Positions 4,467 through 64,000 of a DNA stretch of 64,000 bases are shown piece by piece; positions within the stretch are counted from its first letter, which is position 1; every line of letters begins with the position of its first letter. The stretch lies in IMG/VR virus record IMGVR_UViG_3300005739_000025, one strand, 5' to 3'. Source of the DNA: a virus. Taxonomy: Duplodnaviria; Caudoviricetes. A program made the position numbers and the translations under genes. The notes below the pieces were generated by a model. That model did no database searches, had not been told where the DNA came from, and saw nothing but the letters and a program-made list of their open reading frames with translations.

Positions 4467-4907
4467 TTATCTATCCAATACATCTACTATATCACCAAAG
4501 AGTTCTTTTGATTGTGGCTTTAAGGTTTCAGAGAAGTCTTCTTCCTCTTTATAGCCTATACCTGTATCGGTAAAGGCACCTTTAAGTAATTCTAGTAACG
4601 TCTTTTTACTAGATATATGAGCTATTCTCATTGTTTTTTTATGCCTATTATATGGAGCTTCATATGTCTTTATATGCTTATCTATATTAGCCCAATTACC
4701 AGGTCTATCTTCTGGTTTCATTGTTTTAAATATATTGACCCATTTAATAGGCATCTTCGTTACAGGAAACATCTTTATTAGCGGATCTTTACCTCTAAGA
4801 ACTGAATGATCATACTTTATAAACAGTATCCATAGTCTTTTAACTTTATTGGCTAATACTTCATCATATGTCTTTCCTATATTGGTTAGGTCTCTTTTAA
4901 AGTACAT
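4467..4907 (-). CDS. Hypothetical protein with C-terminal KP..K..FGDI tag
   Basis: Ends LKPQSKELFGDIVDVLDR*; TAAATA 7 nt before ATG. Confidence 0.85.
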   Translation of the reverse strand: MYFKRDLTNIGKTYDEVLANKVKRLWILFIKYDHSVLRGKDPLIKMFPVTKMPIKWVNIFKTMKPEDRPGNWANIDKHIKTYEAPYNRHKKTMRIAHISSKKTLLELLKGAFTDTGIGYKEEEDFSETLKPQSKELFGDIVDVLDR

Positions 4908-4914
4908 TCTTATA

Positions 4915-4999
4915 TATTTACATTTTTCGGCAACGACCCTTCGGTTTATATATAAGGGAAAAAATTTTTGTGCAAAATTTTCGTTCTAAAATCAGCCAT
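4915..4999 (-). repeat. Copy of repeated late-promoter intergenic cassette
   Basis: 4915-4955 matches 6365-6405 at 40/41 nt (tatttacatttttcggcaacgaccct[t/a]cggtttatatataa); similarity continues to about 4999/6448. Confidence 0.85.
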
Positions 5000-5048
5000 T
5001 AGGTTTTATTATAATTTTTAATTGCTTTTTGTTGATTAAATATTATTA

Positions 5049-5468
5049 ATGGTTGATTGTAATGTTGATAATATATTGGTATCAGGAGCTCAGGTTGGGA
5101 GGGTAAATGGAACATATTCAAATGTCGGACTATTAAGTGGTTTTTCATTCTTTACAAAAGATAATGCTACTCAATACTTCTTTATAAGAATTTCATTAAC
5201 TTCATTAAGATGGGAGATATATGCAACTCCTCTCTTTAGCCCATCTGCACCTCAATCAGTACTTTATTATAGCTCTCAGAGCTTTGATTCAATAGCAAAT
5301 ATCCCTCCATGTCCCTCTGACCCCACTATTGTTTGGTCAGGCCCTTATAACCCAGTACCTACTGTAAGTCAGGTGTCTAAAGTTCAGATGAGAGATTTTA
5401 AATTTGCTACAGCAACAGAAGCTGGGTCAGCTCGCTTTAGACGTCTAGTTGCTTTAGGTTACGTTTAA
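5049..5468 (+). CDS. Late hypothetical protein, possibly virion-associated
   Basis: TAAATA 6 nt before ATG; beta-rich Ser/Thr/aromatic composition. Confidence 0.75.
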   Translation: MVDCNVDNILVSGAQVGRVNGTYSNVGLLSGFSFFTKDNATQYFFIRISLTSLRWEIYATPLFSPSAPQSVLYYSSQSFDSIANIPPCPSDPTIVWSGPYNPVPTVSQVSKVQMRDFKFATATEAGSARFRRLVALGYV

Positions 5469-5848
5469 TCTTTTGGTATCCACTCCGAGGCCATCTTCTT
5501 GTGCTCCTCACCGTCCTCACGCTGGGATAGCTCTTCATCTCTACTAGCTATATCTTTATTATATCCCTTTACTATCTTCCAGGCATCTTCTCTTGACTGA
5601 AACTTACCTTCACTATCTATAAATCCATCTTGGAACTTCTTCTTTTCGTACATTTTATAGAATTTTTCAGCAGCGACATCTACGTGTACGTTATTAATAG
5701 CAGCCAGACGCTTAATGATTCTATCATGGACGTTGGCGTGCATATCACCTTTCCTCCCGGCTATTACCTTTCCGGACGGCAATTTTACAGCAGGTGCCAC
5801 TATCTTTAAGTTCTCCAGTAACAGATTTACTATAGAATCAAACTTCAT
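5465..5848 (-). CDS. Conserved phage hypothetical protein with internal-protein-like leader
   Basis: Leader MKFDSIVNLLLE; body motif IVAPAVK...H...QDGFIDSEGKFQSREDA resembles a common phage family. Confidence 0.8.
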   Translation of the reverse strand: MKFDSIVNLLLENLKIVAPAVKLPSGKVIAGRKGDMHANVHDRIIKRLAAINNVHVDVAAEKFYKMYEKKKFQDGFIDSEGKFQSREDAWKIVKGYNKDIASRDEELSQREDGEEHKKMASEWIPKD

Positions 5849-5850
5849 TA

Positions 5851-6359
5851 CTAACCTCTTCTGTTCTTTATATACATAAAGATACGCTCTACTATATCGC
5901 CAGATACAGTCGGACCTAGTTTTTGTTTTACTTCTGGTGTTTCAACTCTCTGGCGAATCCTCTCCATTAACTCGTTATCATCGGTTATGTTATAGAGGTC
6001 TTCAAAGTAATAATCTAATAGTGTATTAGGTGAAAATTGTTCTTTAACCGGCATTGCCTTACGGACAGGTACCTTTTGACCCATTCTCTCCTTATTAGCT
6101 AATTCTCTGGCCTGATCAACTAAGTTAACTATCTTCTTAAAGTCTACACCCATTTGTAAGAACTTTTGATTTAAACTATCCATTTTACCAGATAATAAAT
6201 CCGCATACATACCTGGTGTGTCTTTTTTATAAGATCTAACAACAGACGAGGGTCTTTGGTTATGTTATGGGTTAATTGCTTTAAACCTAACTGGTTAACA
6301 GTCATCATGTCCTGGGCGACGTTTTCTAATAACTTCTTTACTGTCCTATCGAAATTCAT
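5851..6359 (-). CDS. Hypothetical protein split by a -1 frameshift at A-AAA-AAG (62-aa short form, about 169-aa fusion)
   Basis: Track ORFs 6171-6383 and 5851-6210 overlap; heptamer AAAAAAG at 6228-6222 in frame; true start MNFDRTVKKLLE at 6359, 5 nt after TAAATA. Confidence 0.65.
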
Positions 6360-6364
6360 ATTAT

Positions 6365-6472
6365 TATTTACATTTTTCGGCAACGACCCTACGGTTTATA
6401 TATAACGAAAAAATTTTTGCTCGATTTTTTTGTTACAAAACTAGCCATAAGGAACTTAGACCCGGGTATTAT
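6365..6472 (-). repeat. Most complete copy of the repeated intergenic cassette
   Basis: Shares 41-nt block with 4915-4955, ggaacttagacc..gtattat with 4449-4470, and partial similarity with 7126-7152. Confidence 0.85.
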
Positions 6473-7125
6473 GGTATAGCTTCGAATTTACCCTTTATAC
6501 CCAAACCACCACCGGATATTAAACTATTCTTCATATCTGGTGGTACTTCAGTATTAAGAAACTGCATTAATGAGGCAACACCAGCTGCCCCAGGTCCGGT
6601 TATTCTTGGAGGCCTCATTTTTATCTTCCCAGTCTCAAACGCTTTTTGTAATTTATTATATATTTGTTGAAACTTATTAAAATCTCTTTCAGTCTTAAAC
6701 CCCCAATCACCTGTTTTAGGATCTCTTACAATTCTCTGAATAGTCTTTATATCTGTTGATGGGGCGTCAGCAGGTAGTACTTTATAATTTCTATTAGCAA
6801 AAGAATCTTTACTAGAAGCTATGGCCTGTTCAGTAGGTTCTTTTTTAAATAACCACTTATACATTCTATAAGCTGGATCTTCCAACTTATCTCTATCAGC
6901 TCTCAATACATACCCCAATTTTTCACCAAGCTTCTTATCTCTAACGTTCATAGGAAAGTACTGACTTTTAGGTTCTGGTTTATCTACAAAATAGGAATCA
7001 CCACCATAACCAGTAGATCTTACCTTACCAGTTTTCAATATATTACGCACTTCTTCTGAGCCAGTAGAAACACGAGACCCTAAATTTTGTTCTAGTAATC
7101 TGTTTACTAGTCTATCAAAATTCAT
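6469..7125 (-). CDS. Hypothetical protein with internal-protein-like leader
   Basis: Start moved to MNFDRLVNRLLE (7125), 5 nt after TAAATA. Confidence 0.8.
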   Translation of the reverse strand: MNFDRLVNRLLEQNLGSRVSTGSEEVRNILKTGKVRSTGYGGDSYFVDKPEPKSQYFPMNVRDKKLGEKLGYVLRADRDKLEDPAYRMYKWLFKKEPTEQAIASSKDSFANRNYKVLPADAPSTDIKTIQRIVRDPKTGDWGFKTERDFNKFQQIYNKLQKAFETGKIKMRPPRITGPGAAGVASLMQFLNTEVPPDMKNSLISGGGLGIKGKFEAIP

Positions 7126-7161
7126 ATTATTATTTACTATTTGCGGCATAGAACCTTCGGT

Positions 7162-8754
7162 TTAAAAATATTCCTGTAATACTTCTTTAAAATAATTTTT
7201 ATCCGATTCACCCAAGGTATCAAATATATCACCAAAGTGTTTTTTAGTTTCCGGTTTTAATGGCAATTCATCAGGAATAAATTCATATACACCTGGTTGG
7301 GTTTGAAATTCTATATAACTTTTTTGTATCTTTCTTAATTGTTTTTCCGATCCAGTAAACATGCTGTTATTAAAATCCCCCTTCCATTGATTGTATACTC
7401 TAACACCTCTATACTGGTTTGACCAGGAAGAACTAATAGGAAACTGTAATGCCTCTTTATAAAGTTTTAATCTTTTTCCTCTTAAGTCACTAAGTGGCTG
7501 CAGCCAATATTTTACCTGCATTACAGAATCATCATCGTCATTATCAGTATATGTAAACGACATTACCCAAAGAGGCTCTTTTCTTTCCGTACCTTCTTTT
7601 AAAGAAGACAAAATATCGCTAAAGTGTTCTTTGGTTTTTGGCTTAAGGTCTAGCTCTTCTTTCATTCTAGTACCATATATATAATTCTTATAGTCTAAAA
7701 ATTCTTTGTTAACCTTATCCTTTGGACCTATAAACGCTATTACCGTGGAGTACTTTCCAATATAGTTTCCAAGTCGTACATCTATATCTTTATCATCTTC
7801 ATAGAGACCGTGTTTGTAATTAACTTTATGATTGACTAGATTTTCTACTATCTCTTTATCCTTATCATTTAACCCTTCTAGACGCATATGTTTATAATCA
7901 GCATAAGCTACCTCCGTACCTCTTGGTTTATAGATCTTAATCAAAAATATAAACTTTTCTTTTTGCTGTCTACTCTCCTGCAACGCCGTAAAGATATCAC
8001 CAAAATGTTTTTTAGTTTCTGGTTTAACAGGTAAATCTTCTTCTAAACTTTTAAATGTAATTTTATAAGTCTTTATTAAATCCTTAACATCTGATAAAGA
8101 ATTAATAATGAAAGCTAGCCTGTATCTCACCTTACCACTATTATAGTGCTGTAATTCATAAGCCTTCATACCTGGAGTTGTTTTATATTGTTTCATCATC
8201 TTAAGTAACTTTTTTTCATCATCTGTCATCTCACTTATTTTTTTATAACTGTAAAGAGCTCTTTCTTCTGAGTAATACGCTTTTGGGTTCTCCCTCAACA
8301 CTCTTAGAAAGAATATATATTTGTCTCTATTTTTAGATTCATCTAAATTTGTAAGTATATCTTCAAAAGCTTCTCGAGATTTAGGTCTCATAGTTTTTTT
8401 AGCATATTCATTTTTAAGTTTCTTTATTATTTCTTCTCTATGTACATCCCACCAACGGTAAGATGCTTTATATGATGATTCATAGTCGCCTAGGTATTTG
8501 CTTACCACTAGATCTTTAAAAGAATAACCCGGTGTGTCCATATACTCTACAATTTCAATTACAGCATACTGCTCTCTTAAACTCTTATACCAACCTTCTT
8601 GTGGATCTTTATTTTCTAGTCTTACAGTGTATATAATTTCTCTATTATCTTTATCTATTTTTATATCTTGTACTGTTATTTTTACTGGTAAATCACTATA
8701 GAATATATTCTGAAATGATTCGGCTATGCTGTATAAATCTCTTTTACGGTTCAT
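7162..8754 (-). CDS. Four-module putative polyprotein, each module ending in the KPETKKHFGDI tag plus LxE
   Basis: Tags at 8356-8388, 7993-8025, 7612-7644, 7225-7257, followed by LDES, LQES, LKEG, LGES. Confidence 0.85.
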   Translation of the reverse strand: MNRKRDLYSIAESFQNIFYSDLPVKITVQDIKIDKDNREIIYTVRLENKDPQEGWYKSLREQYAVIEIVEYMDTPGYSFKDLVVSKYLGDYESSYKASYRWWDVHREEIIKKLKNEYAKKTMRPKSREAFEDILTNLDESKNRDKYIFFLRVLRENPKAYYSEERALYSYKKISEMTDDEKKLLKMMKQYKTTPGMKAYELQHYNSGKVRYRLAFIINSLSDVKDLIKTYKITFKSLEEDLPVKPETKKHFGDIFTALQESRQQKEKFIFLIKIYKPRGTEVAYADYKHMRLEGLNDKDKEIVENLVNHKVNYKHGLYEDDKDIDVRLGNYIGKYSTVIAFIGPKDKVNKEFLDYKNYIYGTRMKEELDLKPKTKEHFSDILSSLKEGTERKEPLWVMSFTYTDNDDDDSVMQVKYWLQPLSDLRGKRLKLYKEALQFPISSSWSNQYRGVRVYNQWKGDFNNSMFTGSEKQLRKIQKSYIEFQTQPGVYEFIPDELPLKPETKKHFGDIFDTLGESDKNYFKEVLQEYF

Positions 8755-8755
8755 A

Positions 8756-9949
8756 TTAACAATGATAATTTAAGTACCTTTGAGCAGCCTTAGCTGTATT
8801 ATTACCTTTATTCTTTTGTTTTGATTTAATTCCTCTAGCTTTAGAACAAGACATCTTACCTTTTACTTGTCGTTTTAGAATACCAGGTCTCACCGGATCG
8901 TGTATAGATTTTTCTGATAAACAACTATCCATTATATTATCAAATATATCACCAAAGTGTTTTTCTGTTTCTGGTTTAAAATCTAGCTCTGGTTCGAATT
9001 TTCCTCTACCTGACCCAAAAGTAAGTATATTATTATCTAAAACTATTCTTAAATTGTCCTTCCCACCAATAAATGCATAATGCTTTCTTAATACAGGGTA
9101 AAATTTAGCTCCTGTGTAATGAGATGTATATTCTCTCTCATTAAATGTACCTCTTATTTTATTATTGTCTACATAAAATGTCATATCATTTAAACGTTCT
9201 TTATCCCTTTCTGTTAAGTCCTTTAATGGTTTTATTTTATAGTAATGTTTAGAATCCTTTGAAGCTTCATTTATGTTCATGAATAGAATATAGGGTTCTT
9301 GACCTTCCGGTATTTTAATTTCATCCATTAAATCGTTTATTGCTTCAACACTTTCGTTTAAACCGACTATTATATCACCGAAATGCTTTTGAGTCTCCGG
9401 CTTCATTGACTTTTTAATTTCATATGCATTAAGGGTCTTATTGTTAACCTTATCTAAAAATTTACCCAACTCCATCAAATCATTATCATTACTACTATCA
9501 TACGGTTTACCATACATTTTTCTACTACGTTTTAACTCTCTTATACCAGATTTAATATCGGTACTAATATCCTGACTTTGAGCAGTTGTTAGGTGAGTTA
9601 GTCCAGAATGTATCATTTGACCATGGGTGCCCTTACCCTTCAATTCGGGTTCATAAAGATATATATCTGTTTCTACTTCGTCTTCATTCATTGCCCAATC
9701 ATATATTGTTCTTATAACTTTATATTTTTTCTTTGAAGTTCTATCTTCAACATCATAATCAAATACTGCTTCACCATCTTCATTATAATATTTTTGTAAT
9801 GTAGAAATATAAAATCTACCATTGTCAACACTCTCGTTAAGACCACCCATTACACCATCAAAGTGTTTTTTTGTTTTTGGTCTAGCAGCTAAAACTTTTT
9901 TATCTTGTAAATTTTCCAATAAATTGCTAATTGTTTTATAGAATCCCAC
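8756..9949 (-). CDS. Multi-module putative polyprotein with three tags and a basic Cys/His C-terminal domain
   Basis: GTG 5 nt after TAAATA; tags at 9851-9883, 9371-9403, 8945-8977; C-terminus SIHDPVRPGILKRQ...SCSKA...AAQRYLNYHC. Confidence 0.85.
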   Translation of the reverse strand: MGFYKTISNLLENLQDKKVLAARPKTKKHFDGVMGGLNESVDNGRFYISTLQKYYNEDGEAVFDYDVEDRTSKKKYKVIRTIYDWAMNEDEVETDIYLYEPELKGKGTHGQMIHSGLTHLTTAQSQDISTDIKSGIRELKRSRKMYGKPYDSSNDNDLMELGKFLDKVNNKTLNAYEIKKSMKPETQKHFGDIIVGLNESVEAINDLMDEIKIPEGQEPYILFMNINEASKDSKHYYKIKPLKDLTERDKERLNDMTFYVDNNKIRGTFNEREYTSHYTGAKFYPVLRKHYAFIGGKDNLRIVLDNNILTFGSGRGKFEPELDFKPETEKHFGDIFDNIMDSCLSEKSIHDPVRPGILKRQVKGKMSCSKARGIKSKQKNKGNNTAKAAQRYLNYHC

Positions 9950-10003
9950 AATTTTATTTAAGATTTAAAGTATATTTTTAGCTACTATTCGTTATAATAA
10001 ATT

Positions 10004-10714
10004 GTGGGTAAATCTATAGTCTATTATGGTTATATAGGAAATGATATGTATGTTGAGCCAGAAAAAGTCTGGCCAACAGCTATAGGTAATTGTCTATTGT
10101 TGTCTAAACTACATTCTGATGGCACGGCCGGTGGGGTGACTAAATGCCCCGCTTTCAAAGAATTTTATAAAAATACATTTTTAATAACCTCACCCTTTGA
10201 TTATAAACTTAATATAACAGATAGGAAGTTTCAATGTTATGATTATGATCAAGATTTTTATGATAGATATATCATTACAAGAGATGTTTCTAATAGAGTA
10301 TTAAGCTTAAGAGCACCAGAAATTATATTTTTTAGTGAAGATAAAAACTTGGAACTGGAAATGTTGCCTCCTCTTTTAAGTCCTAATATGTTTTCTAATT
10401 GTTTGTACATAACAGGCAAATACAACATAGGAAAACATTTTCGTACACTAGAATTAGCTTTAGCTTTAAGAGAGGATAAAGAATTAGAGATTAATTCAGG
10501 AGACAGTCTATATTATGTTAGATTTAACACGGACAATGAAGTAGAGTTAAGAAGATTTTTATTCAATACAGAACTAATGCAAATTATAACTTATATAACA
10601 AATATAAGAACTTATACTAAAAAAATAAAACCGTTATGTGAGTACTATACTAAAGCTATGCAATTCGGTTATAGAAATAAAATTCTTAAAAATATACGTA
10701 AAAATTTATTTTAA
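10004..10714 (+). CDS. Conserved phage hypothetical protein
   Basis: GTG 5 nt after TATAAT(9993); KCPAFKEFYKNTFLITSPFD motif typical of hypothetical genes of aquatic T4-like phages. Confidence 0.8.
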   Translation: MGKSIVYYGYIGNDMYVEPEKVWPTAIGNCLLLSKLHSDGTAGGVTKCPAFKEFYKNTFLITSPFDYKLNITDRKFQCYDYDQDFYDRYIITRDVSNRVLSLRAPEIIFFSEDKNLELEMLPPLLSPNMFSNCLYITGKYNIGKHFRTLELALALREDKELEINSGDSLYYVRFNTDNEVELRRFLFNTELMQIITYITNIRTYTKKIKPLCEYYTKAMQFGYRNKILKNIRKNLF

Positions 10715-10745
10715 CGTGATTAACAGCAGAATAAATAATTATACA

Positions 10746-10949
10746 GTGAAAGTAAATGACTCGTCTTTCTATAAAGAGTTCTTAGCAATGAAAGAAGAGA
10801 TTTTAAAACACAAATGGTACGAGTCTGAAAGAGTAGGCTATGATATAGGATTTTCTAGAGCGTTAATTGACTGGACTATAAAATTTAAATCTACCTTTTT
10901 AAAACAAAGAAAGAAAAAAATTAAATCGTATATTTCATACCCAAATTAG
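10746..10949 (+). CDS. Small DUF4032-like protein
   Basis: Start moved to GTG 8 nt after TAAATA; EEILKHKWYESERVGYDIGFSRALIDW resembles the DUF4032 signature (recalled, not searched). Confidence 0.65.
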   Translation: MKVNDSSFYKEFLAMKEEILKHKWYESERVGYDIGFSRALIDWTIKFKSTFLKQRKKKIKSYISYPN

Positions 10950-11292
10950 AGGGTTGAGTTTGAGGAGCTGTAGGAGCGACTCTACCTGTAGGGGCTGTTA
11001 ATTTAGCTAGTAACACTGTTATATTTTCTATAGCTTTCATCATATTGTTTAGTTTTTGATCTAATGAGTTTATCTGATTAGTGAGATTTTGTAAGTTCGG
11101 TGCACCACCTGTTGATGTGCTTTGAGTATTGCTCATAGCTGTGGGAGCGCTAAAACTATTAGCATTTGGTGTAGATGACGTAGGAACTGTAGGCTGAAAA
11201 CTGTTTGGATTCAAAGCCATAGGAGGAGTTGCCTCTTTAACTAAACTTTTAGTATAGTTTTCAAAAATATTATTGAAATCTTCTTTTTTCAT
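10921..11292 (-). CDS. Low-complexity P/T/S protein with coiled coil and leader
   Basis: MKKEDFNNIFENYTKSLVKEA leader; LTNQINSLDQKLNNMMKAIENI heptads. Confidence 0.8.
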   Translation of the reverse strand: MKKEDFNNIFENYTKSLVKEATPPMALNPNSFQPTVPTSSTPNANSFSAPTAMSNTQSTSTGGAPNLQNLTNQINSLDQKLNNMMKAIENITVLLAKLTAPTGRVAPTAPQTQPSNLGMKYTI

Positions 11293-11570
11293 TACCAGTT
11301 TTTACAAGAAAAATATTTTGCAGTTCCAGGCTTTGCTGATGAACATTTGTGACGCGCTCTAAAAGATTTGCGACGTTTTGGATTTGATTTTTTAATTCTT
11401 CTTTTTGGATCACCATAATGTACGCGTTTTAACTTACCACCAACTCGAGCACATCTCATATATTTTTTATCTGTTCTCGTTGATGATTGCTGACCGGTAA
11501 CTTTAGTACATCTGCTACCTTTTTTTGCTTCTTCTAAAATTTGATTAACTAAATTATCGAAATTAAGCAC
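11292..11570 (-). CDS. Small basic conserved phage protein (GDP...RRKSFRARHxC...W family)
   Basis: Start moved to GTG 11570 (MLNFDNLVNQILEEA), overlapping the upstream stop; motif VHYGDP...RRKSFRARHKC...YFSCKNW common in aquatic T4-like phages. Confidence 0.8.
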   Translation of the reverse strand: MLNFDNLVNQILEEAKKGSRCTKVTGQQSSTRTDKKYMRCARVGGKLKRVHYGDPKRRIKKSNPKRRKSFRARHKCSSAKPGTAKYFSCKNW

Positions 11571-11781
11571 TTCTATATTCCCCTTCGATATCATGAGCTA
11601 TTTGCATTAACCTATCACCATCCCCTCTTCTTGCTTTCATAGAAGATATTCTAGTAGCTATAGCTGCAATTTCAGAAGCTAAATTGATCATTTTATTTTT
11701 ATGCTCTGGCGGTTCACCAATATCAGATTCATAAACTTTTGAATACGCCTCAGAAATATTATATAACTCATTCTTCTTCAT
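11563..11781 (-). CDS. Small protein with leader
   Basis: TATAAATA 5 nt before ATG; MKKNELYNISEAYSKVYES. Confidence 0.8.
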   Translation of the reverse strand: MKKNELYNISEAYSKVYESDIGEPPEHKNKMINLASEIAAIATRISSMKARRGDGDRLMQIAHDIEGEYRSA

Positions 11782-11789
11782 AAATGTAT

Positions 11790-12743
11790 TTATAAAGAAC
11801 CTATAATGTCTCCGAAATGTTCTTTTGTTTTAGGCTTCATATTTTTAGTGCTCAGTATCTTTAATCTTTCTTTTTGTGACATTAAAGCAATTTTTAAAAC
11901 CTCAAATGCATCTTTATCAACATCTAATGTATTATTTGTCAAACCATCATACAACTCATACCCACCTATATATGTTAAAGATTTACCCCCTTGTTTATGT
12001 TTTTTTAATGGAATAAGATCCGTATCCCAACGTTTAGTTTTTTTATCTAATATTTTTCTCTTTAATTCTAATCCTAAAAACATAGGTGTTTTTTCATCTA
12101 CAGAATAAGAAAAGTGCTGTAATATTTCATAAAACTTTACACCTTTAGAAGTATTATACCTCACCGTTATTTCATCAATTATTTTGTTATATCTATAACC
12201 AGGATTCTTTGAATATATTCTATTAAAGTCTATAATTTCGGGCTCATTTGTTTGCCTTGACTCTGAAACCGCGCCTAATATATCACCAAAGTGTTTTTTA
12301 GTCTCCGGCTTCATACCCATTGCCTCAATACTCCTCTTTTTCATATCAAAATTACTAACTTGATCTAAAATTTCTTCAATTATTCTAAAACCTTTTTTAT
12401 TTTTAAAATATGGATGCTTATGAATAGCGTGAGCCGCTACTAAATTCATTGGCAGCTCTTTCATTAAATTACGATCTATTGAATGAAGGATCATACCTTC
12501 TTCGCTATTATATCTGCAGTGAAAAATTGCAGTAGATTGTAATATACCAGGCTTATCTTCCTTCAATTTTTCAAAAATCTGAAAAACATTAAACCTTTCT
12601 TTTGTAATAGTATCTTCAAACCTAAAAAAATCGTTTATAAAATGATTAGAAATATCTCTTCTAAATTCTATAAGCTCTACATTTACAGGCTCTGATTTGC
12701 CTCTACTATACGCCTCAAATATTAACTTAGATGTAATATCCAC
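11790..12743 (-). CDS. Two-module tagged protein
   Basis: Leader MDITSKLIFEAY; tags at 12279-12311 (then AVSES) and 11805-11837 (then GSL*). Confidence 0.85.
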   Translation of the reverse strand: MDITSKLIFEAYSRGKSEPVNVELIEFRRDISNHFINDFFRFEDTITKERFNVFQIFEKLKEDKPGILQSTAIFHCRYNSEEGMILHSIDRNLMKELPMNLVAAHAIHKHPYFKNKKGFRIIEEILDQVSNFDMKKRSIEAMGMKPETKKHFGDILGAVSESRQTNEPEIIDFNRIYSKNPGYRYNKIIDEITVRYNTSKGVKFYEILQHFSYSVDEKTPMFLGLELKRKILDKKTKRWDTDLIPLKKHKQGGKSLTYIGGYELYDGLTNNTLDVDKDAFEVLKIALMSQKERLKILSTKNMKPKTKEHFGDIIGSL

Positions 12744-12755
12744 ACTTATATTTAA

Positions 12756-13298
12756 TTATAAAGAAGATAATATGTCACCAAAATGCTTTTGTGTTTCTGG
12801 CTTCATGTTTCTTAATCTTAAGTAGTTGTTTAGATTTTTTAACTCATCTTTAGAATAAACACCCTCGGTCACCGATAAATCTTCATAATCATTTAATACA
12901 TCTGCCATTACGTGCTTTATAAGATTTTTCATATCATCTAACATAGGTCCATGTTTATGTCTGCTTTTAGCATTATGAACAAGCTCTAATACAAAATAGT
13001 AAACATATCTAGGAAAATTTAATTTATCTGTTAAACCATACTTACTACGTAAATTTATTAAAATATTTTTTCTATGCATTCTAAACGGTCCAAGCTCAAA
13101 TAACCCTCTTACTAAAAACGGTAACAAAGGTATACCAACAATATTATTAAACATATCATAGAGTTTATTCTCTAGCCACGATTGTCCTCCTAATTCCCTC
13201 AATTGCCACAAAGTTTCAGTATTTTTCTTTATAGCAATATTAAAAAGAAAAGCAGCAACTTTATCAGCGTATTCGTTCTCGCTCGGTGTTAATGTCAT
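12756..13298 (-). CDS. Helical protein with C-terminal tag
   Basis: Ends MKPETQKHFGDILSSL*; ATGA overlap with upstream gene. Confidence 0.85.
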   Translation of the reverse strand: MTLTPSENEYADKVAAFLFNIAIKKNTETLWQLRELGGQSWLENKLYDMFNNIVGIPLLPFLVRGLFELGPFRMHRKNILINLRSKYGLTDKLNFPRYVYYFVLELVHNAKSRHKHGPMLDDMKNLIKHVMADVLNDYEDLSVTEGVYSKDELKNLNNYLRLRNMKPETQKHFGDILSSL

Positions 13299-14389
13299 AA
13301 CTCTCTTAAAATATCTCCAAAATGTTCTTTTGTTTTCTTTTTCATTCTAGTATCTGAAAAATAATTAGAATCCATAAGGTTTAATAGCAATGCATTTTTT
13401 AAAAACACCTCTGCTATCTTGTAGTTAGTATCATAGGAGTGAGGAAAATAACAATAATATATGTACGATGTATTAACGTGGGATTTTCTATCTTGCATTA
13501 ATATTTCTAAATATTTTTTAGCATTTGGACCAGCGTTATATGATGTTACACCTGTATCCAATAAACCATTTACCTCATTTACATCTATTTCTGGATTATT
13601 ATACACACAATCATATAAAACATGTTTTTCTATGTAAGGTTGTAAAAACTTAGTGAGTATAAAATCATCCGGATCTTCACTTACATATATATTTTCTTTT
13701 ATTACCAAATATGGCATTATATTAAGTTTTACTAGTGAATATAGTTCGTGCTGATTTCTAATTTTAGAGAGCGCAGTGCCTCTATATTTGTAACCTGTTA
13801 AATCATTGGCTAAATTAGCTACTATTTCGCAAATTCTTTTTTCAAAGTCTACCAACTTTAAACTTTTTATCTTACCTGCAGATGTATGTTGATAGCTTTC
13901 TAAAATGCTTTTATATTGTTCATTAAACCCCAAACCTTTTATGATATCACCAAAATGTTTTTTTGTCTCAGGTTTAAACGCTAGTCCTTCTTTTTTATAC
14001 GCCAGCAACCAATTTGCTTTTTTTTCTACCTCCGACATGTAGGTTCCTTGTCTATAAAAATCAGGTACTTTCTTTTGCATTTTATCAAAGTCTTTATCAT
14101 CTCTATCTGTAAAAACATAACCTTTAAAAAGAGTGCTATCTGCTTTTAATGCAACAATAATTTGAGAATGGTTTGCAAAATCTAACTTAGTTCTTTTTCT
14201 ACTATTTTTTGTATTGACAAATACAAATGCAAATCTTTCAAAATTATTATTCTCTAAATAATTTATAATCTTTTGTAGGTTATCTTTGTTATAGTTTATA
14301 AAAAGATTGCTATTAATTCCTGGAAACGCTTTTCTTACTATATTTCCATTATAAATCTTACCAACCTTTAATTGATTAAAAACTTTCAT
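13295..14389 (-). CDS. Two-module tagged protein
   Basis: Tags at 13943-13975 (then GFNEQYKSILES) and 13310-13342 (then REL*). Confidence 0.85.
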   Translation of the reverse strand: MKVFNQLKVGKIYNGNIVRKAFPGINSNLFINYNKDNLQKIINYLENNNFERFAFVFVNTKNSRKRTKLDFANHSQIIVALKADSTLFKGYVFTDRDDKDFDKMQKKVPDFYRQGTYMSEVEKKANWLLAYKKEGLAFKPETKKHFGDIIKGLGFNEQYKSILESYQHTSAGKIKSLKLVDFEKRICEIVANLANDLTGYKYRGTALSKIRNQHELYSLVKLNIMPYLVIKENIYVSEDPDDFILTKFLQPYIEKHVLYDCVYNNPEIDVNEVNGLLDTGVTSYNAGPNAKKYLEILMQDRKSHVNTSYIYYCYFPHSYDTNYKIAEVFLKNALLLNLMDSNYFSDTRMKKKTKEHFGDILREL

Positions 14390-14988
14390 TTATCTAACGC
14401 TCCAAATATATCTCCAAAATGTTTTTTAGTCTCAGGTTTTAAACTTTTATTGAATACGTATTTTTCCCAATAGCTATGTCCCTCTTCAGCGTATTTTTTA
14501 GCTAGTGCATGAAACATAATAGCTAATACTCTAAATCCCTTATCATATAATTCACCATCTTCTAATTCTTCAAATAAACGTTTAAACTCTATTCGCCTCC
14601 CAGCACCTCCAACATACTTTAATAAAGATTTATTAAGAATTTTTTCTATCTTGTCTTTATCTTCATCTTTTAATATACTTTCGCGGGGCTGCATTAAATC
14701 GTAAAAAAACCATCCAATATGCTTTTGCGTCCTTTCATCCACATTAGGATCAAACTTAAATAACCTTCTAAAATTTGCTGTATTCTGATCTTCTATATCA
14801 GTATTATAATACATGTTTGATTTTGCTCTTTGTCTTTCAGTTTTAAATCTATTAGATTTTGGTAGAGCTTTATACTGATTTCTTTTTCTTAACAACATGT
14901 TTATAGTGTAAGTAAGAAGCTTATGTTCTTCTGGAGTTACATCTACCAGTATTTCCTCTAAGAAAAGAATATACTTTTTGAAGTTCAT
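14386..14988 (-). CDS. Protein with leader and C-terminal tag
   Basis: MNFKKYILFLEE; ends LKPETKKHFGDIFGALDK*; TAAATA 6 nt before ATG. Confidence 0.85.
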   Translation of the reverse strand: MNFKKYILFLEEILVDVTPEEHKLLTYTINMLLRKRNQYKALPKSNRFKTERQRAKSNMYYNTDIEDQNTANFRRLFKFDPNVDERTQKHIGWFFYDLMQPRESILKDEDKDKIEKILNKSLLKYVGGAGRRIEFKRLFEELEDGELYDKGFRVLAIMFHALAKKYAEEGHSYWEKYVFNKSLKPETKKHFGDIFGALDK

Positions 14989-15000
14989 CTAAATTATTTA

Positions 15001-15678
15001 TTAACTGTTGATACCTGCGAGTATATCCCCGAAATGCTTTTGAGTCTCTGGCTTCATAGTTCTTTTAATTCTATATTTTTTTAACGATTTATAAAAACTA
15101 TTTTGGCTCATAACTTCTACCCAACCATCTCTATCATAAAGAGCAATACTTCCAATAAAAGCGTACATACCAGTTCTAATTATTTCTTTAATTTTTTCTA
15201 TATCATTATATACACCTTTAAAGTTCTCTCTTCCCCACCCATCTAATCCCCCAATCATCATAGTGATTGATACTGAGTATTCACTTTTTTTCCAAATAGT
15301 ATTCGCTTTTTTCTTGTCAAATAATCTATCTATTAATGCTTTTACGGAAGGTTCTTTATCTAATTCTAAAAAAGTACCTCCAACATAGTCCCAGTCATCA
15401 TCTCTTCTTGGTTTATGATCTATTAAATTACATAAAAATTTGTATATATTTTTTATAATGTAATCTTCATCCGGATAGTAGATCGCTTCATCAGTAGCAA
15501 TACCACCAGGCCTATTAAAAGGTTGTTTTGCTAATTTAAAATAATATTTTTGTAAAAATTGTGAAATAAGAGTTATGCAATCTTCTTCTCTTTGTGTTAA
15601 AGGTATTGGCCTGTACCCGTCTACCTCTGGAAAACGTGTACCTTCGATTATCGTTCGAACTTGCTCGTAAAAGTCCAT
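15001..15678 (-). CDS. Protein with leader and C-terminal tag
   Basis: Start moved to MDFYEQVRTIIEG (15678); ends MKPETQKHFGDILAGINS*. Confidence 0.85.
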   Translation of the reverse strand: MDFYEQVRTIIEGTRFPEVDGYRPIPLTQREEDCITLISQFLQKYYFKLAKQPFNRPGGIATDEAIYYPDEDYIIKNIYKFLCNLIDHKPRRDDDWDYVGGTFLELDKEPSVKALIDRLFDKKKANTIWKKSEYSVSITMMIGGLDGWGRENFKGVYNDIEKIKEIIRTGMYAFIGSIALYDRDGWVEVMSQNSFYKSLKKYRIKRTMKPETQKHFGDILAGINS

Positions 15679-15682
15679 CTCA

Positions 15683-15925
15683 TTATCTTGCAGATGGTAT
15701 CCAGCTTGCATCCTCAGGATTTTCTGGAAGTTTTAATGTTTTAGCCTGACCTTGATCAGATCTATAACCCTCAATTAAGTCTAAAACTTTTTTTAAACCT
15801 TCAGCTATTTGATCTAAAACATCACCTTTTACTGCCTCTGCATCTTCATCTGGCATTTGTTCTTGTTGAGAACATTGAGATTCTACTACAGTTTTGTATG
15901 CTTTATATATGCTGCTATTATTCAT
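15683..15925 (-). CDS. Small protein with leader
   Basis: MNNSSIYKAYKTVVES; tightly packed in operon. Confidence 0.75.
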   Translation of the reverse strand: MNNSSIYKAYKTVVESQCSQQEQMPDEDAEAVKGDVLDQIAEGLKKVLDLIEGYRSDQGQAKTLKLPENPEDASWIPSAR

Positions 15926-15926
15926 A

Positions 15927-16412
15927 TTATCTTGTTAATAAGTTTCTTAAGTTATACATTATAGACCAAACAGATGGTCTACTGATTACTCTTTTTATTT
16001 CCTCTAAAAGAGAACGGTCTTTAATGTGAGTTGTTGCGTAACTTTTTATAAACTCTTTTAGTTGATTAATATCTATATTTTTATATCTATCTAATCCAAA
16101 GTTCTCTAAACCTAAAAAGAAAGCGTCTTCTACTTCGTCAATTAAATCTTTTATATAAGGAAGATTCGATTGGAACATAAAGTATTTTGATTTTCTTTCT
16201 ACAGGTTTTTGAACTAGCTTTGTATTTTCTACATTACTATTTTCTGCAAAGTTTTCCAAAAGTTTATTAAACTCTGAATAGTTTCTTTCAACACCCAAAA
16301 GTTTTTTATACTTTGAATTCTCTAAAATTTGTCTTTGTTTTTCAGTTAACTTATGTTTACCGTAGTAATATTTTTCAGCTAACAATTTTAATTTTTTGTC
16401 TCTTGAGTTCAT
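15927..16412 (-). CDS. Hypothetical protein
   Basis: Start moved to MNSRDKKLKLLAE (16412), 1 nt after the AAA gene stop. Confidence 0.75.
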   Translation of the reverse strand: MNSRDKKLKLLAEKYYYGKHKLTEKQRQILENSKYKKLLGVERNYSEFNKLLENFAENSNVENTKLVQKPVERKSKYFMFQSNLPYIKDLIDEVEDAFFLGLENFGLDRYKNIDINQLKEFIKSYATTHIKDRSLLEEIKRVISRPSVWSIMYNLRNLLTR

Positions 16413-16413
16413 A

Positions 16414-18009
16414 TTATTTTGTTGCGCAGCCTCCACCTGCAATAATTTTTTTAATTCTTGGAAGAACTTCTTCTAAGAATTCTTTTTTGACCGCTGGATC
16501 AAACTCTTCATAAACTACAAAGTCTAACATGAATGTTAGAAGATCTCTAGGCATATCTTTATTTAAAGTCTCAAACATAACACAAACTGCTTCTGGAGAT
16601 AAATTGTTCATTATTTTAGCTAAACCTATCATTACCTCTCTATCATCAGGTGATATTTTATCCCCAGCCCCTTTAGCATTTTGTGATGCAATTCTAAGTT
16701 TGTTTGCTACAAACACAATTAAAGCTAACATTTTATCTAAGGGTTGATCTTTAAGATACTTTTTAGGATCTTTTAAAATCTTACCCATATCAAAAGATTG
16801 AATGTGTTTTAAGAAAGTATCAAATCTATTTGCCCACGGTACACCAGCGCGCTGAGCAGCAAATAATCTAATGTTTTCCATCGCGTTAAATGATCTACCA
16901 GATGCTTTTTGTTCATCATACTTCTTTCTGAAATATTCTATACCCTTAGAAATCTTTTCTAACACTCTAGGAGTCACAAATGGATTTTCGCCGTTCGGTT
17001 CTTTGTATAGGGCGTCTTCAGGTACAGCTTTTGTGAACGCTACAATAGCATCATCTATACCGGCATTAACAGCATAGTCTCTCCATTCATCTGGATTTAC
17101 TACAAGAACACCAGCTCCAAAGCGGTTAATGTTAGCAGGAGAAATTGGCTCGTTTCCAAAAAGTTCACCCATGTTACATGCAGCTACTATTCCGACGTCT
17201 TTGGCAATTCTCCTGTCACCCAAAACTCTATCAAGTACAATTTTAAACGCAGCGTCTTTTACTTCTTTAGATCCTTGATTGAATTCATCCAAAAATAAAA
17301 ATCCATCTGCACCTTCTCTTGTTAAAAGATAAGCCCATGAAGGTGGACTATAAACTGTGTAAGGTTTATCAGATTTTACAGGTACACCCACGACGTCTGA
17401 TCTATCCATTTCTGCTAATCTTAAATCCACATAAACAAAATAGGAAGTGGGATCTTGAATAAGAGCATCTCTTTCTTCATCACTTAGATCAAAAAATTCT
17501 ACATATTCTTTGTTCTTTTCATTAGCAATTCTTTTTGATACTTGTTTAAAAATACTACTCTTACCCACACCTGGATCACCAATTAATAGGAAAGACTCTT
17601 TCATATCATAAGCAGCTTCTGCTTGTTCTTCTACTTGTCTTATAGACATTTCTGGAAATTCTGTCTCTTTCCAGCTTATAAGATCTGAATCACCGAATCT
17701 AGGAATATCTACTATTGATGTTGGATCTTGTTTTATTTGAGAAGCAACCTGCGCTTCTTTGTTAGCAGCTGAAATTAATGGCTGCGCTTGTTTTACAATA
17801 TCATCGGAGCTTATTTCAGGTTCTTGAGCTTGTTGAGCTATTTCACCAGCCTGACCTTTTAGTTGGGAAGCTTTTTGCTGAACACTTTTAGGGTTAACTT
17901 GTTTACCCTTAACCATTTGCATTGGTTTTGAAAAAGGAACCTCACCACCTACCGCTTCATTTAAAACTTTTTTGTATAGATTGAATATATTCTTGGAATT
18001 AGAGTCCAT
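16414..18009 (-). CDS. MoxR-type AAA+ ATPase
   Basis: Walker A GDPGVGKS, Walker B FLFLDEFN, FKIVLDRVLG, PANINRF, TPRVLEK; adjacent to a vWA gene. Confidence 0.85.
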   Translation of the reverse strand: MDSNSKNIFNLYKKVLNEAVGGEVPFSKPMQMVKGKQVNPKSVQQKASQLKGQAGEIAQQAQEPEISSDDIVKQAQPLISAANKEAQVASQIKQDPTSIVDIPRFGDSDLISWKETEFPEMSIRQVEEQAEAAYDMKESFLLIGDPGVGKSSIFKQVSKRIANEKNKEYVEFFDLSDEERDALIQDPTSYFVYVDLRLAEMDRSDVVGVPVKSDKPYTVYSPPSWAYLLTREGADGFLFLDEFNQGSKEVKDAAFKIVLDRVLGDRRIAKDVGIVAACNMGELFGNEPISPANINRFGAGVLVVNPDEWRDYAVNAGIDDAIVAFTKAVPEDALYKEPNGENPFVTPRVLEKISKGIEYFRKKYDEQKASGRSFNAMENIRLFAAQRAGVPWANRFDTFLKHIQSFDMGKILKDPKKYLKDQPLDKMLALIVFVANKLRIASQNAKGAGDKISPDDREVMIGLAKIMNNLSPEAVCVMFETLNKDMPRDLLTFMLDFVVYEEFDPAVKKEFLEEVLPRIKKIIAGGGCATK

Positions 18010-18017
18010 AAAGTTAT

Positions 18018-19523: not shown

Positions 19524-19550
19524 AAGTAAACCATAAGTATTTAGATATTC

Positions 19551-30726: not shown

Positions 30727-30936
30727 GTGAAAGACTACAATAGTAAGTTTAATAACATAATGGAAAATTTTGGTAGTATTCTTTTAAAAAAGAGAATGTT
30801 TTATCCTAGAAACTTTAAACTATCTGATAAATTTACTAATACATTAAAAGAAGAAATTAAAAGACTTAAAAAAGAAGGTCTTTCAGATTCTAAAATTATA
30901 GAAAAATTATCTAAGTGTATTAGATTTTATTGTTAA
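30727..30936 (+). CDS. Small basic late protein
   Basis: GTG 6 nt after TAAATA. Confidence 0.7.
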   Translation: MKDYNSKFNNIMENFGSILLKKRMFYPRNFKLSDKFTNTLKEEIKRLKKEGLSDSKIIEKLSKCIRFYC

Positions 30937-31946: not shown

Positions 31947-31959
31947 GTTCCACTATAAT
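31947..31959 (+). promoter_or_regulatory. Early-type promoter heading the glycosyltransferase cluster
   Basis: GTTCC-ac-TATAAT, ATG 8 nt later: same geometry as the 305-3734 array. Confidence 0.75.
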
Positions 31960-46041: not shown

Positions 46042-46055
46042 TAAATACTAATAGT

Positions 46056-61111: not shown

Positions 61112-61112
61112 A

Positions 61113-62255: not shown

Positions 62256-62259
62256 TAAA

Positions 62260-62907
62260 ATGGAATTTTTGGAACATATATTTTACAATAAAAAAAATAA
62301 GTTCTATAACGAGGGTAAAATAAACACGAAAAGCTGGACCGCAGATAATTTAAAGTGTTTTATTAAAAAATATAGAAAACCATATGAAGATCTCTTTAAA
62401 GAAAAAGCTTCTATAGAACAACTAGTTCAAGCTCGTCAAAAAGATTCTAGTATAGATTGGTTCCCTGAAATATTTTGGCATAACAAAAAAGATATAGCTG
62501 TGTTTGAGTATGTTGGAGAATCTATTAATAGCTTAAATATTCCTAAAGATTATAGAGAACAATTTAATAAAATCTTTTCAGATTTGTTAAACATGGGTTT
62601 AATGCATAGTAAAATAGTAGAATTTAATAGATATAAAGGCACATTTTATGAAAAAAATTTTTTTGAAACTACAAAAAATATTTTTGACAACGAACTAACA
62701 GTTTTAAATAACAAATTATATCTTGTTGATTACTCTGGACATCTAGTTAAGATTAAAAAATCAAATAGATTTGAATCTTTAGCTTGGGATAAAGATAAAG
62801 AAGCTCTTTATTCTAAATCTATTAATATAGAAGAATATAAAAAAGAAATAGAAAAATTTTTAGATACAATTAAAAAAAGAGAGGACCATAAAGATCCTCT
62901 CTGTTAA
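62260..62907 (+). CDS. Hypothetical protein, possibly kinase-like fold
   Basis: VFEYVGE...GLMH...LYLVDY pattern but no intact HxD catalytic loop; ORF secure, function weak. Confidence 0.5.
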   Translation: MEFLEHIFYNKKNKFYNEGKINTKSWTADNLKCFIKKYRKPYEDLFKEKASIEQLVQARQKDSSIDWFPEIFWHNKKDIAVFEYVGESINSLNIPKDYREQFNKIFSDLLNMGLMHSKIVEFNRYKGTFYEKNFFETTKNIFDNELTVLNNKLYLVDYSGHLVKIKKSNRFESLAWDKDKEALYSKSINIEEYKKEIEKFLDTIKKREDHKDPLC

Positions 62908-62939
62908 CTGCAGTTACGCTTATTTAGCGTTATACTAAA

Positions 62940-63134
62940 TTAGGCAACTTGAAGTCCAGCCTTGCGGATAGCACGGGTAAAATCACGTGCATCAACACGA
63001 CGCAAAGAACGGGCATGCTGATTGGATTGCTCCAAAACATTAACACGCTTGACGGTGAATTCACCGTTGCGGCTACGCTCGATCTTAGCGAAGAAGGTCT
63101 TCGGACGAAGGTTCTTATTTGTGTAATCGATCAT
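62940..63134 (-). CDS. Small basic protein
   Basis: 64 aa, Arg/Lys-rich; TATAAT and a canonical AAAGGAG Shine-Dalgarno upstream; GC-richer codons. Confidence 0.8.
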   Translation of the reverse strand: MIDYTNKNLRPKTFFAKIERSRNGEFTVKRVNVLEQSNQHARSLRRVDARDFTRAIRKAGLQVA

Positions 63135-63184
63135 CGTTTAACTCCTTTCACTATTCATTATATAACATAAATATCTTAATCAAT

Positions 63185-63919
63185 ATGAAATTTGCAGATT
63201 TTTTATTAATAGAAGAAAAATTTTCAGACTCAATACTTAATAGAACTGTAAATTACTTAGAAAAAGAAAAAAAAGTACTATTTTTAACAACTTCTAATAG
63301 ACCACCAAGTGATGAAACAGATGTTCCAAAAAGTACACAATTAGCCAAATATATTCAAAGTAGATTAGGGTTGTTAAAATGTGAGATAATAGATGTATCT
63401 AAACTTAACATTTATAATTGTGTTGGTAATGTAAGCACAAAAGAGGGTAATCAGTGCGGAGTAAAAGGTGCATTACTTAAAAATAAGGAAAAAAACCCTT
63501 CCGGGTATCATAGATGCTGGGTGTCTTACAGTCACGATGACGATGAATTATGGAAAGTTACAAAATCGCTGTTTGAGTCAACAGCGGTTGTGTTTTTTGG
63601 TTCTGTAAGATGGGGCCAAATGAATGCTTATTATCAAAAATTAATAGAAAGACTTGATTGGATTGAAAATAGACATACAACTTTGGGGGAAAATAATATA
63701 ATAAAGAATATTAAAGCTGGTATAATAGCAGTTGGCCAACAATGGAACGGTAAACAGGTTATAGAAACTCAAAAACAAGTTTTTAAATTTTACGGATTTA
63801 AAGTGCCTGAGGAATTATCCTGGAATTGGCAGTATTCAGATAATCCAAATTTAGAGACTAAAGAGTCTTACAAGAAAGCTATTACTACTTTTGATAAAGT
63901 TTTTAAACTAAATAATTAG
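63185..63919 (+). CDS. Flavodoxin-fold (NADPH-dependent FMN reductase-like) protein with leader
   Basis: VLFLTTSNR..KST.LA, NIYNC.G.VS, DDELW.V...L.ES.AVVFFGSVRWG..YQKLIERL; start moved to MKFADFLLIEE. Confidence 0.8.
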   Translation: MKFADFLLIEEKFSDSILNRTVNYLEKEKKVLFLTTSNRPPSDETDVPKSTQLAKYIQSRLGLLKCEIIDVSKLNIYNCVGNVSTKEGNQCGVKGALLKNKEKNPSGYHRCWVSYSHDDDELWKVTKSLFESTAVVFFGSVRWGQMNAYYQKLIERLDWIENRHTTLGENNIIKNIKAGIIAVGQQWNGKQVIETQKQVFKFYGFKVPEELSWNWQYSDNPNLETKESYKKAITTFDKVFKLNN

Positions 63920-63920
63920 A

Positions 63921-64000
63921 ATGAACAATTTTGATATAACTTATAGTATATTACTAGAAGAGTTTTTAAATGAGGAGGATTTAACTACCAGGGGTACAGA
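63921..64000 (+). CDS. Late protein, 3'-truncated by the window
   Basis: ATG 6 nt after TAAATA; MNNFDITYSILLEEFLNE leader. Confidence 0.65.
   Translation, partial: MNNFDITYSILLEEFLNEEDLTTRGT

Follow-up and report, generated by a model that had tools for sequence, protein, structure and literature searches.

The window analysed here, a 64-kb stretch of DNA (64,000 nucleotides, nt) from IMG/VR virus record IMGVR_UViG_3300005739_000025, comes from an uncultured T4-like giant phage, and about 25 of its proteins begin with a short shared leader that resembles the capsid-targeting sequence (CTS) of T4 internal proteins. The GC content is low, at 28-38% over most of the length. Besides the leader-bearing genes, the window holds collagen-like tail-fibre and virion-structural genes, a 10-kb glycosyltransferase cluster, and genes for PhoH, QueD, a QueE-like radical-SAM protein, a denV-like glycosylase and a Nudix protein. 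A megablast search against cultured phages gave no near match to the window, and a single-protein scan across viral contigs did not find a close relative; in the protein index, its VWA protein sits on a 244-kb contig. Two relatives serve for comparison: L001, which derives from the ENA GROS21 sample and is syntenic and 68% identical to the window, and G001, a complete 218.4-kb genome in IMG/VR found by a profile-guided scan, whose VWA protein is about 43% identical to that of the window.

Leader-bearing genes of the window

The initial annotation sorted the leaders into two classes. Class A has a short form of 10 residues (MKTFKQFLLE, MVTFKSFLKE) and a longer form of 12-14 residues, M-x-F-D/K-x-h-h-x-x-L-L-E (h, hydrophobic; x, any residue), while class B extends over 15-21 residues and ends in D/S-x-x-I-F-x-x-Y-x-x-x-h-h-x-E. 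Common to all forms is an aromatic-x-x-aromatic/hydrophobic pair, then hydrophobic-x-Glu. Hidden Markov models (HMMs) for class A and class B were built from the listed leaders, with a threshold in the window of at least 7 bits. In the list, lengths are in amino acids (aa), a slash marks the predicted cut, and bits are HMM scores; the C-terminal tag and the repeated promoter cassette are described further below.

Class A
27402-28055, plus strand: 217 aa, MKTFKQFLLE/I, 14.5 bits with the class A HMM; in sequence the closest match to T4 IPI, IPII and IPIII
26713-27405, plus strand: 230 aa, MVTFKSFLKE/A, 11.4 bits, TATAAATA upstream
19551-21212, plus strand: 553 aa, MHSFKDFIKLYE/A, 19.6 bits, C-terminal tag
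21207-22232, minus strand: 341 aa, MINFKKFLNVVE/E, 21.8 bits, phrog_13937
14386-14988, minus strand: 200 aa, MNFKKYILFLE/E, 17.2 bits, C-terminal tag
63185-63919, plus strand: 244 aa, MKFADFLLIE/E, 15.2 bits
5465-5848, minus strand: 127 aa, MKFDSIVNLLLE/N, 22.0 bits
6171-6359, minus strand: 62 aa, MNFDRTVKKLLE/N, 23.4 bits, behind the repeated promoter cassette
6469-7125, minus strand: 218 aa, MNFDRLVNRLLE/Q, 22.0 bits, behind the repeated promoter cassette
11292-11570, minus strand: 92 aa, GTG start, LNFDNLVNQILE/E, 21.4 bits
22229-22501, minus strand: 90 aa, MGLFSKLVNSLLKE/D, 16.9 bits
8756-9949, minus strand: 397 aa, GTG start, GFYKTISNLLE/N, 20.9 bits, tag copy directly after the leader
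15001-15678, minus strand: 225 aa, MDFYEQVRTIIE/G, 12.7 bits, C-terminal tag
63921-64000, plus strand: the 14th class A gene, cut by the window end, MNNFDITYSILLE/E

Class B
28070-28939, plus strand: 289 aa, MDRDSKLIFENYHKKVILE/A, 38.5 bits
11790-12743, minus strand: 317 aa, GTG start, DITSKLIFEAY..., 31.5 bits, two tag copies
25730-26686, plus strand: 318 aa, MAYNKDSRSIFDRYVNKILQE/A, 34.7 bits
16414-18009, minus strand: MoxR-type AAA+ ATPase, 531 aa, MDSNSKNIFNLYKKVLNE/A
18018-19523, minus strand: DUF2201 metallopeptidase/VWA protein, 501 aa, MRYNFDGDSIFKSYRRILLE/Q
10921-11292, minus strand: 123 aa, MKKEDFNNIFENYTKSLVKE/A, 37.1 bits
11563-11781, minus strand: 72 aa, MKKNELYNISEAYSKVYE/S, 34.2 bits, TATAAATA upstream
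7162-8754, minus strand: class B-like, 530 aa, MNRKRDLYSIAESFQNIF, 28.6 bits, two internal tag copies
15683-15925, minus strand: short class B, 80 aa, MNNSSIYKAYKTVVE/S, 26.4 bits

Looser candidates
4467-4907, minus strand: class B-like, 146 aa, MYFKRDLTNIGKTYDEVL, 7.1 bits, variant C-terminal tag
30727-30936, plus strand: weak, 69 aa, GTG start, KDYNSKFNNIMENF, 7.3 bits, in the range of the best control hits
28941-29954, plus strand: weak, picked by eye, 337 aa, MTPLEILNQLNSIIE/G, below 4 bits with both HMMs
22962-23393, plus strand: Nudix hydrolase (Pfam NUDIX), loosely leader-like, MKIQEIYDIIVE/S, 4.1 bits for the longer open reading frame (ORF)

All 23 leader strings quoted in the initial annotation begin at the first codon of an ORF, which is ATG in 20 and GTG in three (9949, 11570 and 12743). 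For those at 6359, 7125, 15678 and 63185 the longest ORF starts further upstream and the leader ATG is internal to it, and the one at 19523 likewise uses an internal ATG, inside a TTG-started ORF. The annotated figure of about 27 bearers is fair, with 23 firm and three to five looser cases (the four candidates above and 5851-6210), and a fair count for the window is about 24-28. Orthologs of 19551-21212 retain a leader (MHSFKQFLVLIEA in L001, MSFKEYIEEA in G001), and the L001 orthologs of 11292-11570 and 4467-4907 start MNNFEALVNKILEE and MNRKRDLSAIGKTYQDIL, respectively. The true start of the Nudix protein is probably 22962, because its L001 ortholog starts at the same Met.

Chance as a source of the shared N-termini is excluded by the statistics. 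In an unsupervised test of 77 genes (nearest-neighbour BLOSUM62 comparison over residues 2-23, with paralog pairs excluded and 231 internal-segment controls), 13 genes exceed the 99th percentile of the controls and 10 exceed the control maximum. The HMMs, which the initial annotation had called for, find 25 window genes at or above 7 bits versus two of 236 internal-Met control 28-mers. Trained on the window and not on L001, they match 18 of the 30 L001 genes at 4.5 bits or more; in G001, about 22 genes pass at 6 bits versus 5 of 598 controls, and 35 genes pass at 4.5 bits versus 11 genes with a control match. The internal control named in the initial annotation holds: the genes of the glycosyltransferase cluster, QueD, the QueE-like gene and the fibre genes all fall below the leader threshold, and so do PhoH and the virion-structural genes. 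A hand-made regular expression for the leader was dropped, since 5 of 245 internal controls matched it and the shortest leaders were missed.

Conservation at the DNA level is equally excluded. The codons of the conserved Phe (TTT/TTC), Leu (TTA/CTG/CTA/TTG/CTT) and Glu (GAA/GAG) differ from gene to gene; thus, it is the protein and not the DNA that is conserved, and selection acts on the peptide. Behind the leaders, BLASTP among the mature parts gives matches only at the short C-terminal tag and a few module repeats, and the Pfam domains of the leader-bearing proteins differ or are absent.

The leaders are short amphipathic N-terminal helices, with a helical hydrophobic moment of 0.58-0.66 as compared with 0.46 for other N-termini and 0.41 for internal segments. 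The predicted terminal Glu is residue 10-14 in class A and 15-21 in class B; in 21 of 22 leaders it stands at P1 with L, I, V or F at P3, and the residue that follows is mostly A, E, N, Q or S. F4 and F7 are both present in MKTFKQFLLE, MVTFKSFLKE, MHSFKDF and MINFKKF, and in the other class A and the class B leaders the aromatic-x-x-aromatic/hydrophobic pair, shifted by 1-8 residues, would be the equivalent of these positions 4 and 7. AF2 modelling of the VWA protein on 22 homologs gives a helix of its own for residues 4-21 (pLDDT 48-61); residues 21-26 lie below 50, and a confident domain (pLDDT >90) begins at residue 32, which would place the predicted cut, LLE20/Q, at the junction of helix and linker. 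Atlas structural matches of two other leader proteins also start behind the leader, at residue 30-46 in 21207-22232 and from residue about 12-20 in 27402-28055. The two annotated classes are better taken as two intergrading forms of one signal, since hybrids occur, such as the G001 ATPase leader, which starts MKLFKDIMSLQEAYSNILNEA.

Enzymes behind the leader and the head module of a relative

Pfam and PHROG searches gave no match for most leader proteins, and the enzymes named by the initial annotation fared differently. The AAA+ ATPase (16414-18009) is borne out by Pfam AAA_5 and phrog_1297, with about 100 linker residues before its Walker A motif, and the VWA-peptidase (18018-19523) by Pfam DUF2201_N, DUF2201 and VWA. 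The protein at 63185-63919 is probably an FMN-reductase-like flavoprotein: an FMN_red lead comes from Atlas features, with matches of 0.92-0.96 to viral clusters carrying PF03358, but a Pfam match at E < 0.01 is absent. As for two supposed muralytic enzymes, one fold resemblance, a weak one, was found, in 27402-28055, whose Atlas model is similar to phi6 P5 and LysM/CHAP-neighbour folds (TM about 0.5) and which gave no match in Pfam and PHROG searches; the second enzyme was not confirmed. The Nudix assignment holds by Pfam, but its leader is only loose and low-scoring, and a nuclease-like protein found no backing in Pfam, PHROG or structural matches.

The two firm enzymes show how the leader travels. 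VWA-peptidase homologs hold a class B leader, M-x-Y-N-x-D-R-D-S-I-F-x-x-Y-x-x-I-L-L-E-Q, down to about 35% identity, with Tyr14 kept in at least 90% of 22 aligned sequences; some homologs instead carry class A-like leaders (MFLTFRQFIES, MRDxTSIxKILES), and distant ones of about 400 aa begin directly at the catalytic domain, with no leader. For the AAA+ ATPase, an exhaustive, profile-free search returned 150 representatives, and 138 diverse homologs were scored, an N-terminal extension being defined by a Walker A motif beyond residue 50. A leader score was reached by 33 of the 101 extended homologs (class A in 11, class B in 22) but by none of the 37 that lack an extension (p = 8e-6), and a hydrophobic-x-Glu site falls within residues 1-26 in 95 of the 101. 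In these alignments the leader is a movable module, swapped in class on orthologous enzymes and absent from short homologs. The cultured T4-like cyanophage S-TIM61 (L027 1500-3640) has a short MoxR ATPase/VWA-like pair without leaders, beside Hsp20; the leader was added to the pair only in particular lineages. The peptidase of Vibrio phage phiKT1024 likewise has no leader. A literature search for MoxR/VWA pairs in virions returned nothing of use.

Modules behind the leaders also move. The last 54 residues of 8756-9949, which the tag copy behind its leader suggests to be a multi-module protein, are 74% identical to a stand-alone 63-aa G001 protein (G001 91949-92140, minus strand; L017:11949-12140) that bears a class A leader itself, MQTFKQYLLE. 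Between relatives, cargo modules therefore occur both fused and split, which is compatible with polyprotein-like processing.

G001 has gp20-24-type head genes, among them a gene for a Peptidase_S77 protein (E = 5.6e-30) that retains the GEMNHP and SSR motifs in alignment with T4 gp21, the prohead protease, and is adjoined by gp22- and gp23-like genes. The G001 scaffold protein itself starts with a class A-like leader, MNFKEILKDQFKDLITEE, in parallel to T4 gp22, whose own N-terminus is cleaved. This protease family is very abundant in metagenomes, with at least 120 homologs, those listed all at least 69% identical to the G001 protein; the gp21 of the window phage was not among the 120 homologs listed, and an exact 39-mer used in tracing the head genes of the window phage had no match in the JGI metagenome contigs. 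In the window, 46008-46883 encodes a membrane-like protein of 291 aa that is 50% identical to the product of G001 110301-111170, the gene directly adjoining the G001 protease gene.

Promoters, repeats and a C-terminal tag

Of 24 leader genes, 14 have TAAATA in the 80 nt upstream, 11 of them with a spacing of 11-13 nt to the start codon, and the leader genes that lack it lie in co-directional runs behind TAAATA-headed genes; at some sites it appears as the full T4 late consensus, TATAAATA. The presence of such promoters had been noted correctly, but an enrichment over other genes is not borne out, as 16 of 48 other genes, including fibre and structural ones, share the motif (p = 0.07). The pattern is consistent with late expression of the leader genes, with TAAATA marking late genes generally and not this group. 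At a spacing of 11-13 nt, and with no Shine-Dalgarno sequence, the motif precedes for example the starts at 6359, 7125, 9949, 11781, 12743 and 18009, and it stands at the same spacing at 26713, 28070, 44335, 48200-49333 and 55922. Late mRNAs may accordingly have almost no untranslated leader, or TAAATA may have a second role in initiation.

A second motif, GTTCC-N2-TATACT, occurs in six exact copies within window 305-3490, before small ORFs of the GC-richer region 1-4400. The glycosyltransferase cluster is headed by a seventh, near copy, GTTCC-N2-TATAAT (GTTCCACTATAAT at 31947-31959), and none of 100 shuffles reaches seven matches. It is probably an early or middle promoter type of the window phage.

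Repeats connect some of the leader genes. An 81-nt repeat covering promoter and first codons precedes three of them (4874-4954, 6324-6404, 7090-7170), within a repeated intergenic cassette at 4405-4470, 4874-5003, 6324-6472 and 7090-7170, whose repeat families of 81, 46 and 47 nt are 60-79% identical to the reference copy. The cassette resembles a promoter-leader unit that was duplicated, or else a substrate for recombination.

About nine proteins within 4467-21212 share a separate tag, about 16 residues long (M/L-K-P-E-T-K-K-H-F-G-D-I-x-x-x-L), at their end or at internal positions. It is found at the C-termini of 7162-8754, 11790-12743, 12756-13298, 13295-14389, 14386-14988, 15001-15678 and 19551-21212, as a variant in 4467-4907 and as an N-proximal copy in 8756-9949. 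Seven of these about nine proteins also bear a leader; 12756-13298 and 13295-14389 carry the tag only.

Probable capsid targeting and its alternatives

Class A is already of the known T4 kind. In the T4 record (NC_000866), IPII and IPIII start MKTYQEFIAE/A, as the initial annotation had stated, and IPI starts MKTFKEFTSTTTPVSTITE/A, gp24 MAKINELLRE/S, Alt MELITELFDE/D and gp22 MLKEQLIAE/A. T4 propeptides are 10-19 residues long, and IPIII needs no more than its first 10 residues to be incorporated into the head; amber-suppressor mutagenesis assigned targeting mainly to residues 4 and 7 and processing to residues 8 and 10 (PMC9026906; the CTS work is that of Mullaney and Black 1996, as reviewed in PMC9026906 and PMC3012670). 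MKTFKQFLLE and MVTFKSFLKE, with F4, F7, L8 and E10, match at all four of these functionally mapped positions. An Asp at position 10 in T4 stops processing while leaving targeting intact. Like the CTS of IPI-IPIII and the propeptides of Alt and gp24, the window leaders are N-terminal, about 10-20 residues long, aromatic at position 4, Phe or hydrophobic at position 7, and end in hydrophobic-x-Glu; and as with the T4 CTS, they precede unrelated mature proteins, and their phage is T4-like, has late-type promoters and has relatives that encode an S77 prohead protease. The T-even internal proteins are a highly diverse, polymorphic set that has the CTS alone in common and consists of delivered anti-defence proteins (PMC3012670); many unrelated proteins behind one leader is thus a known T4 principle. 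The T-even ip loci (Repoila et al. 1994, cited in PMC3012670) offer the same picture of diverse, fast-evolving proteins sharing only the CTS, with cassette-like exchange at the leader-coding 5' end, and enzymes as cargo have a T4 precedent in Alt.

The differences are those of scale and composition. About 25 bearers lie in 64 kb, as opposed to a handful in T4, and unlike the ip loci the set is an order of magnitude larger, is distributed across several operons and both strands, and has large conserved enzymes among its members. T4 has neither class B (D/S-x-x-I-F-x-x-Y...h-x-E, 15-21 residues) nor the 12-residue form of class A. The putative cargo includes the MoxR AAA+ ATPase/VWA-peptidase pair and proteins of at least 500 aa, and many bearers carry the separate C-terminal tag too. 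Four features are new: the size of the set, class B as a longer form, the MoxR/VWA pair as recruits, and the tag that occurs alongside the leaders. In the literature library that was searched, no paper on such leader expansions was found.

Cleavage in phiKZ-like phages follows a small residue-x-Glu motif. In phiKZ, 201phi2-1 and SPN3US, many head-internal proteins, enzymes included, are cut after Glu by a gp21-related protease and ejected (PMC5694885, PMC9026906). In SPN3US, propeptides exceed 100 residues in four head proteins besides gp81 and have a T4-like length only in gp45 (PMC5694885). Propeptides of the phiKZ/SPN3US type were considered for the window and rejected: its leaders have only 10-21 residues, with L, I, V or F at P3. 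Being short with L/I/V at P3, they are of the T4 type.

We propose the following. The leader helix would dock its protein onto the scaffolding core of the prohead during head assembly; cleavage behind the conserved Glu of hydrophobic-x-Glu by a prohead serine protease of T4 type (Peptidase_S77, gp21 family) would follow; and the mature protein, left free inside the head, would leave with the DNA at infection. There would be one signal, an aromatic-x-x-aromatic/hydrophobic pair, a variable helical spacer and hydrophobic-x-Glu, of which classes A and B are length variants, and the lineage would have placed it on about 25 window proteins, including the MoxR-type AAA+ ATPase, its VWA-metallopeptidase partner, the probable flavoprotein and others, many of the remaining bearers being fast-evolving proteins with no assigned fold. 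Considering the sequence evidence as a whole, the leaders are likely T4-type capsid-targeting propeptides that the prohead protease then removes. Core binding, cleavage and presence in the virion are expected on this proposal, and delivery of the leader-bearing proteins into the host we regard as an even question.

Several observations weigh against this proposal. Two class B proteins, 7162-8754 and 11790-12743, have no clean hydrophobic-x-Glu at the expected place, the latter offering an atypical GKSE at 18 or LIE at 26. The presence of a late promoter does not tell leader genes apart from the rest of the late genes. In comparison with L001, identity is 65% in the leaders, 65% in the mature parts and 63% in the 15 residues behind the leader, so that the leaders show no extra conservation. 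The protease was read from G001, whose VWA protein is only about 43% identical to that of the window. A complex prediction that paired the G001 protease with residues 1-40 of a leader protein from the same genome scored 0.00, with the partner poorly folded, and is neutral as evidence. As the MoxR/VWA pair of S-TIM61 is leaderless, such enzymes need not work inside the head. T4 gene 61.1 (NC_000866 18966-19130, minus strand) has a 54-aa product that starts MKTFKEFIKED, a near-perfect CTS, and that is not, to our knowledge, among the known head proteins; thus, the motif alone is no proof of packaging.

A different fate for the same signal would be that the leader proteins are prohead core or scaffold proteins, or assembly factors, that are processed and then degraded or expelled before DNA packaging, and hence never delivered. 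The class A-like leader of the G001 scaffold protein fits such a role, as does the precedent of T4 gp22, gp67 and gp68, which are also cut by gp21 and lost (T4 record notes), and a MoxR ATPase/VWA pair would suit a chaperone in assembly. However, the bearers are too many, too different and too fast-evolving for scaffold, most appear in the models to have a folded mature domain behind a short propeptide, and the T-even set with the CTS alone in common is one of delivered anti-defence proteins (PMC3012670), which makes this explanation unlikely.

The leader might instead be a recognition peptide, unrelated to the head, for another phage enzyme or partner, such as the DUF2201 metallopeptidase, a modifying enzyme like those of ribosomally synthesized and post-translationally modified peptides (RiPPs), or a chaperone. 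Indeed, genes of both a metallopeptidase and a radical-SAM-type protein are interspersed with those of the leader proteins. The metallopeptidase is itself leader-bearing, however, and the radical-SAM-type protein, since QueD adjoins it, is probably QueE and not a SPASM maturase. With the match to the T4 CTS reaching four functionally mapped residues, and leaders co-occurring with a T4-type protease in relatives, we consider a recognition peptide of this kind distinctly improbable.

Cassette exchange raises the question of whether the shared N-termini are mainly a by-product of recombination, in which promoter, start and leader were copied together, as at the T-even ip loci, with the leaders themselves unselected. 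The 81-nt promoter/first-codon repeat before three leader genes and the modules shuffled between relatives are what such copying would leave. Most leaders, however, differ in DNA and keep only the amino-acid pattern, and they persist on orthologs over deep divergence, changing class without being lost; recombination at CTS-coding DNA and a functional CTS are moreover mutually compatible. As a full explanation, unselected copying has a slim chance. A role of the conservation in initiating translation or regulating the mRNA, at the start of late transcripts, is hardly credible. In its favour, TAAATA at 11-13 nt before the ATG, with no Shine-Dalgarno sequence, would put the first codons at the extreme 5' terminus of the mRNA; however, synonymous codons vary freely at the conserved residues, other late genes with the same promoter spacing are leaderless, and leaders also stand on operon-internal genes.

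Returning to capsid targeting, if the leaders act as in T4, a sequence rule predicts the capsid-carried proteins of abundant freshwater phages, which would be injected before gene expression, and this predicted set is where anti-defence and host-takeover functions are to be expected. It would also mean that the T4 head-loading system takes cargo of at least 500 aa, ATPases included, tolerates at least two leader architectures, and has recruited enzymes that are cytoplasmic in other phages. Such a rule may be of use in finding counter-defence proteins and in protein-delivery engineering on the T4 CTS. More speculatively, and we advance this as a tentative idea that may well be wrong, a widespread clade of uncultured T4-like jumbo phages would load dozens of proteins by a combinatorial code of interchangeable A/B leaders plus the C-terminal tag, and the cargo would include a MoxR/VWA-metallopeptidase machine, powered by ATP, whose counterparts in cultured cyanophages have no leader. 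On this idea, the proteome that these phages inject would be readable from sequence, and would be far larger and more enzymatic than in any characterised T4 relative.

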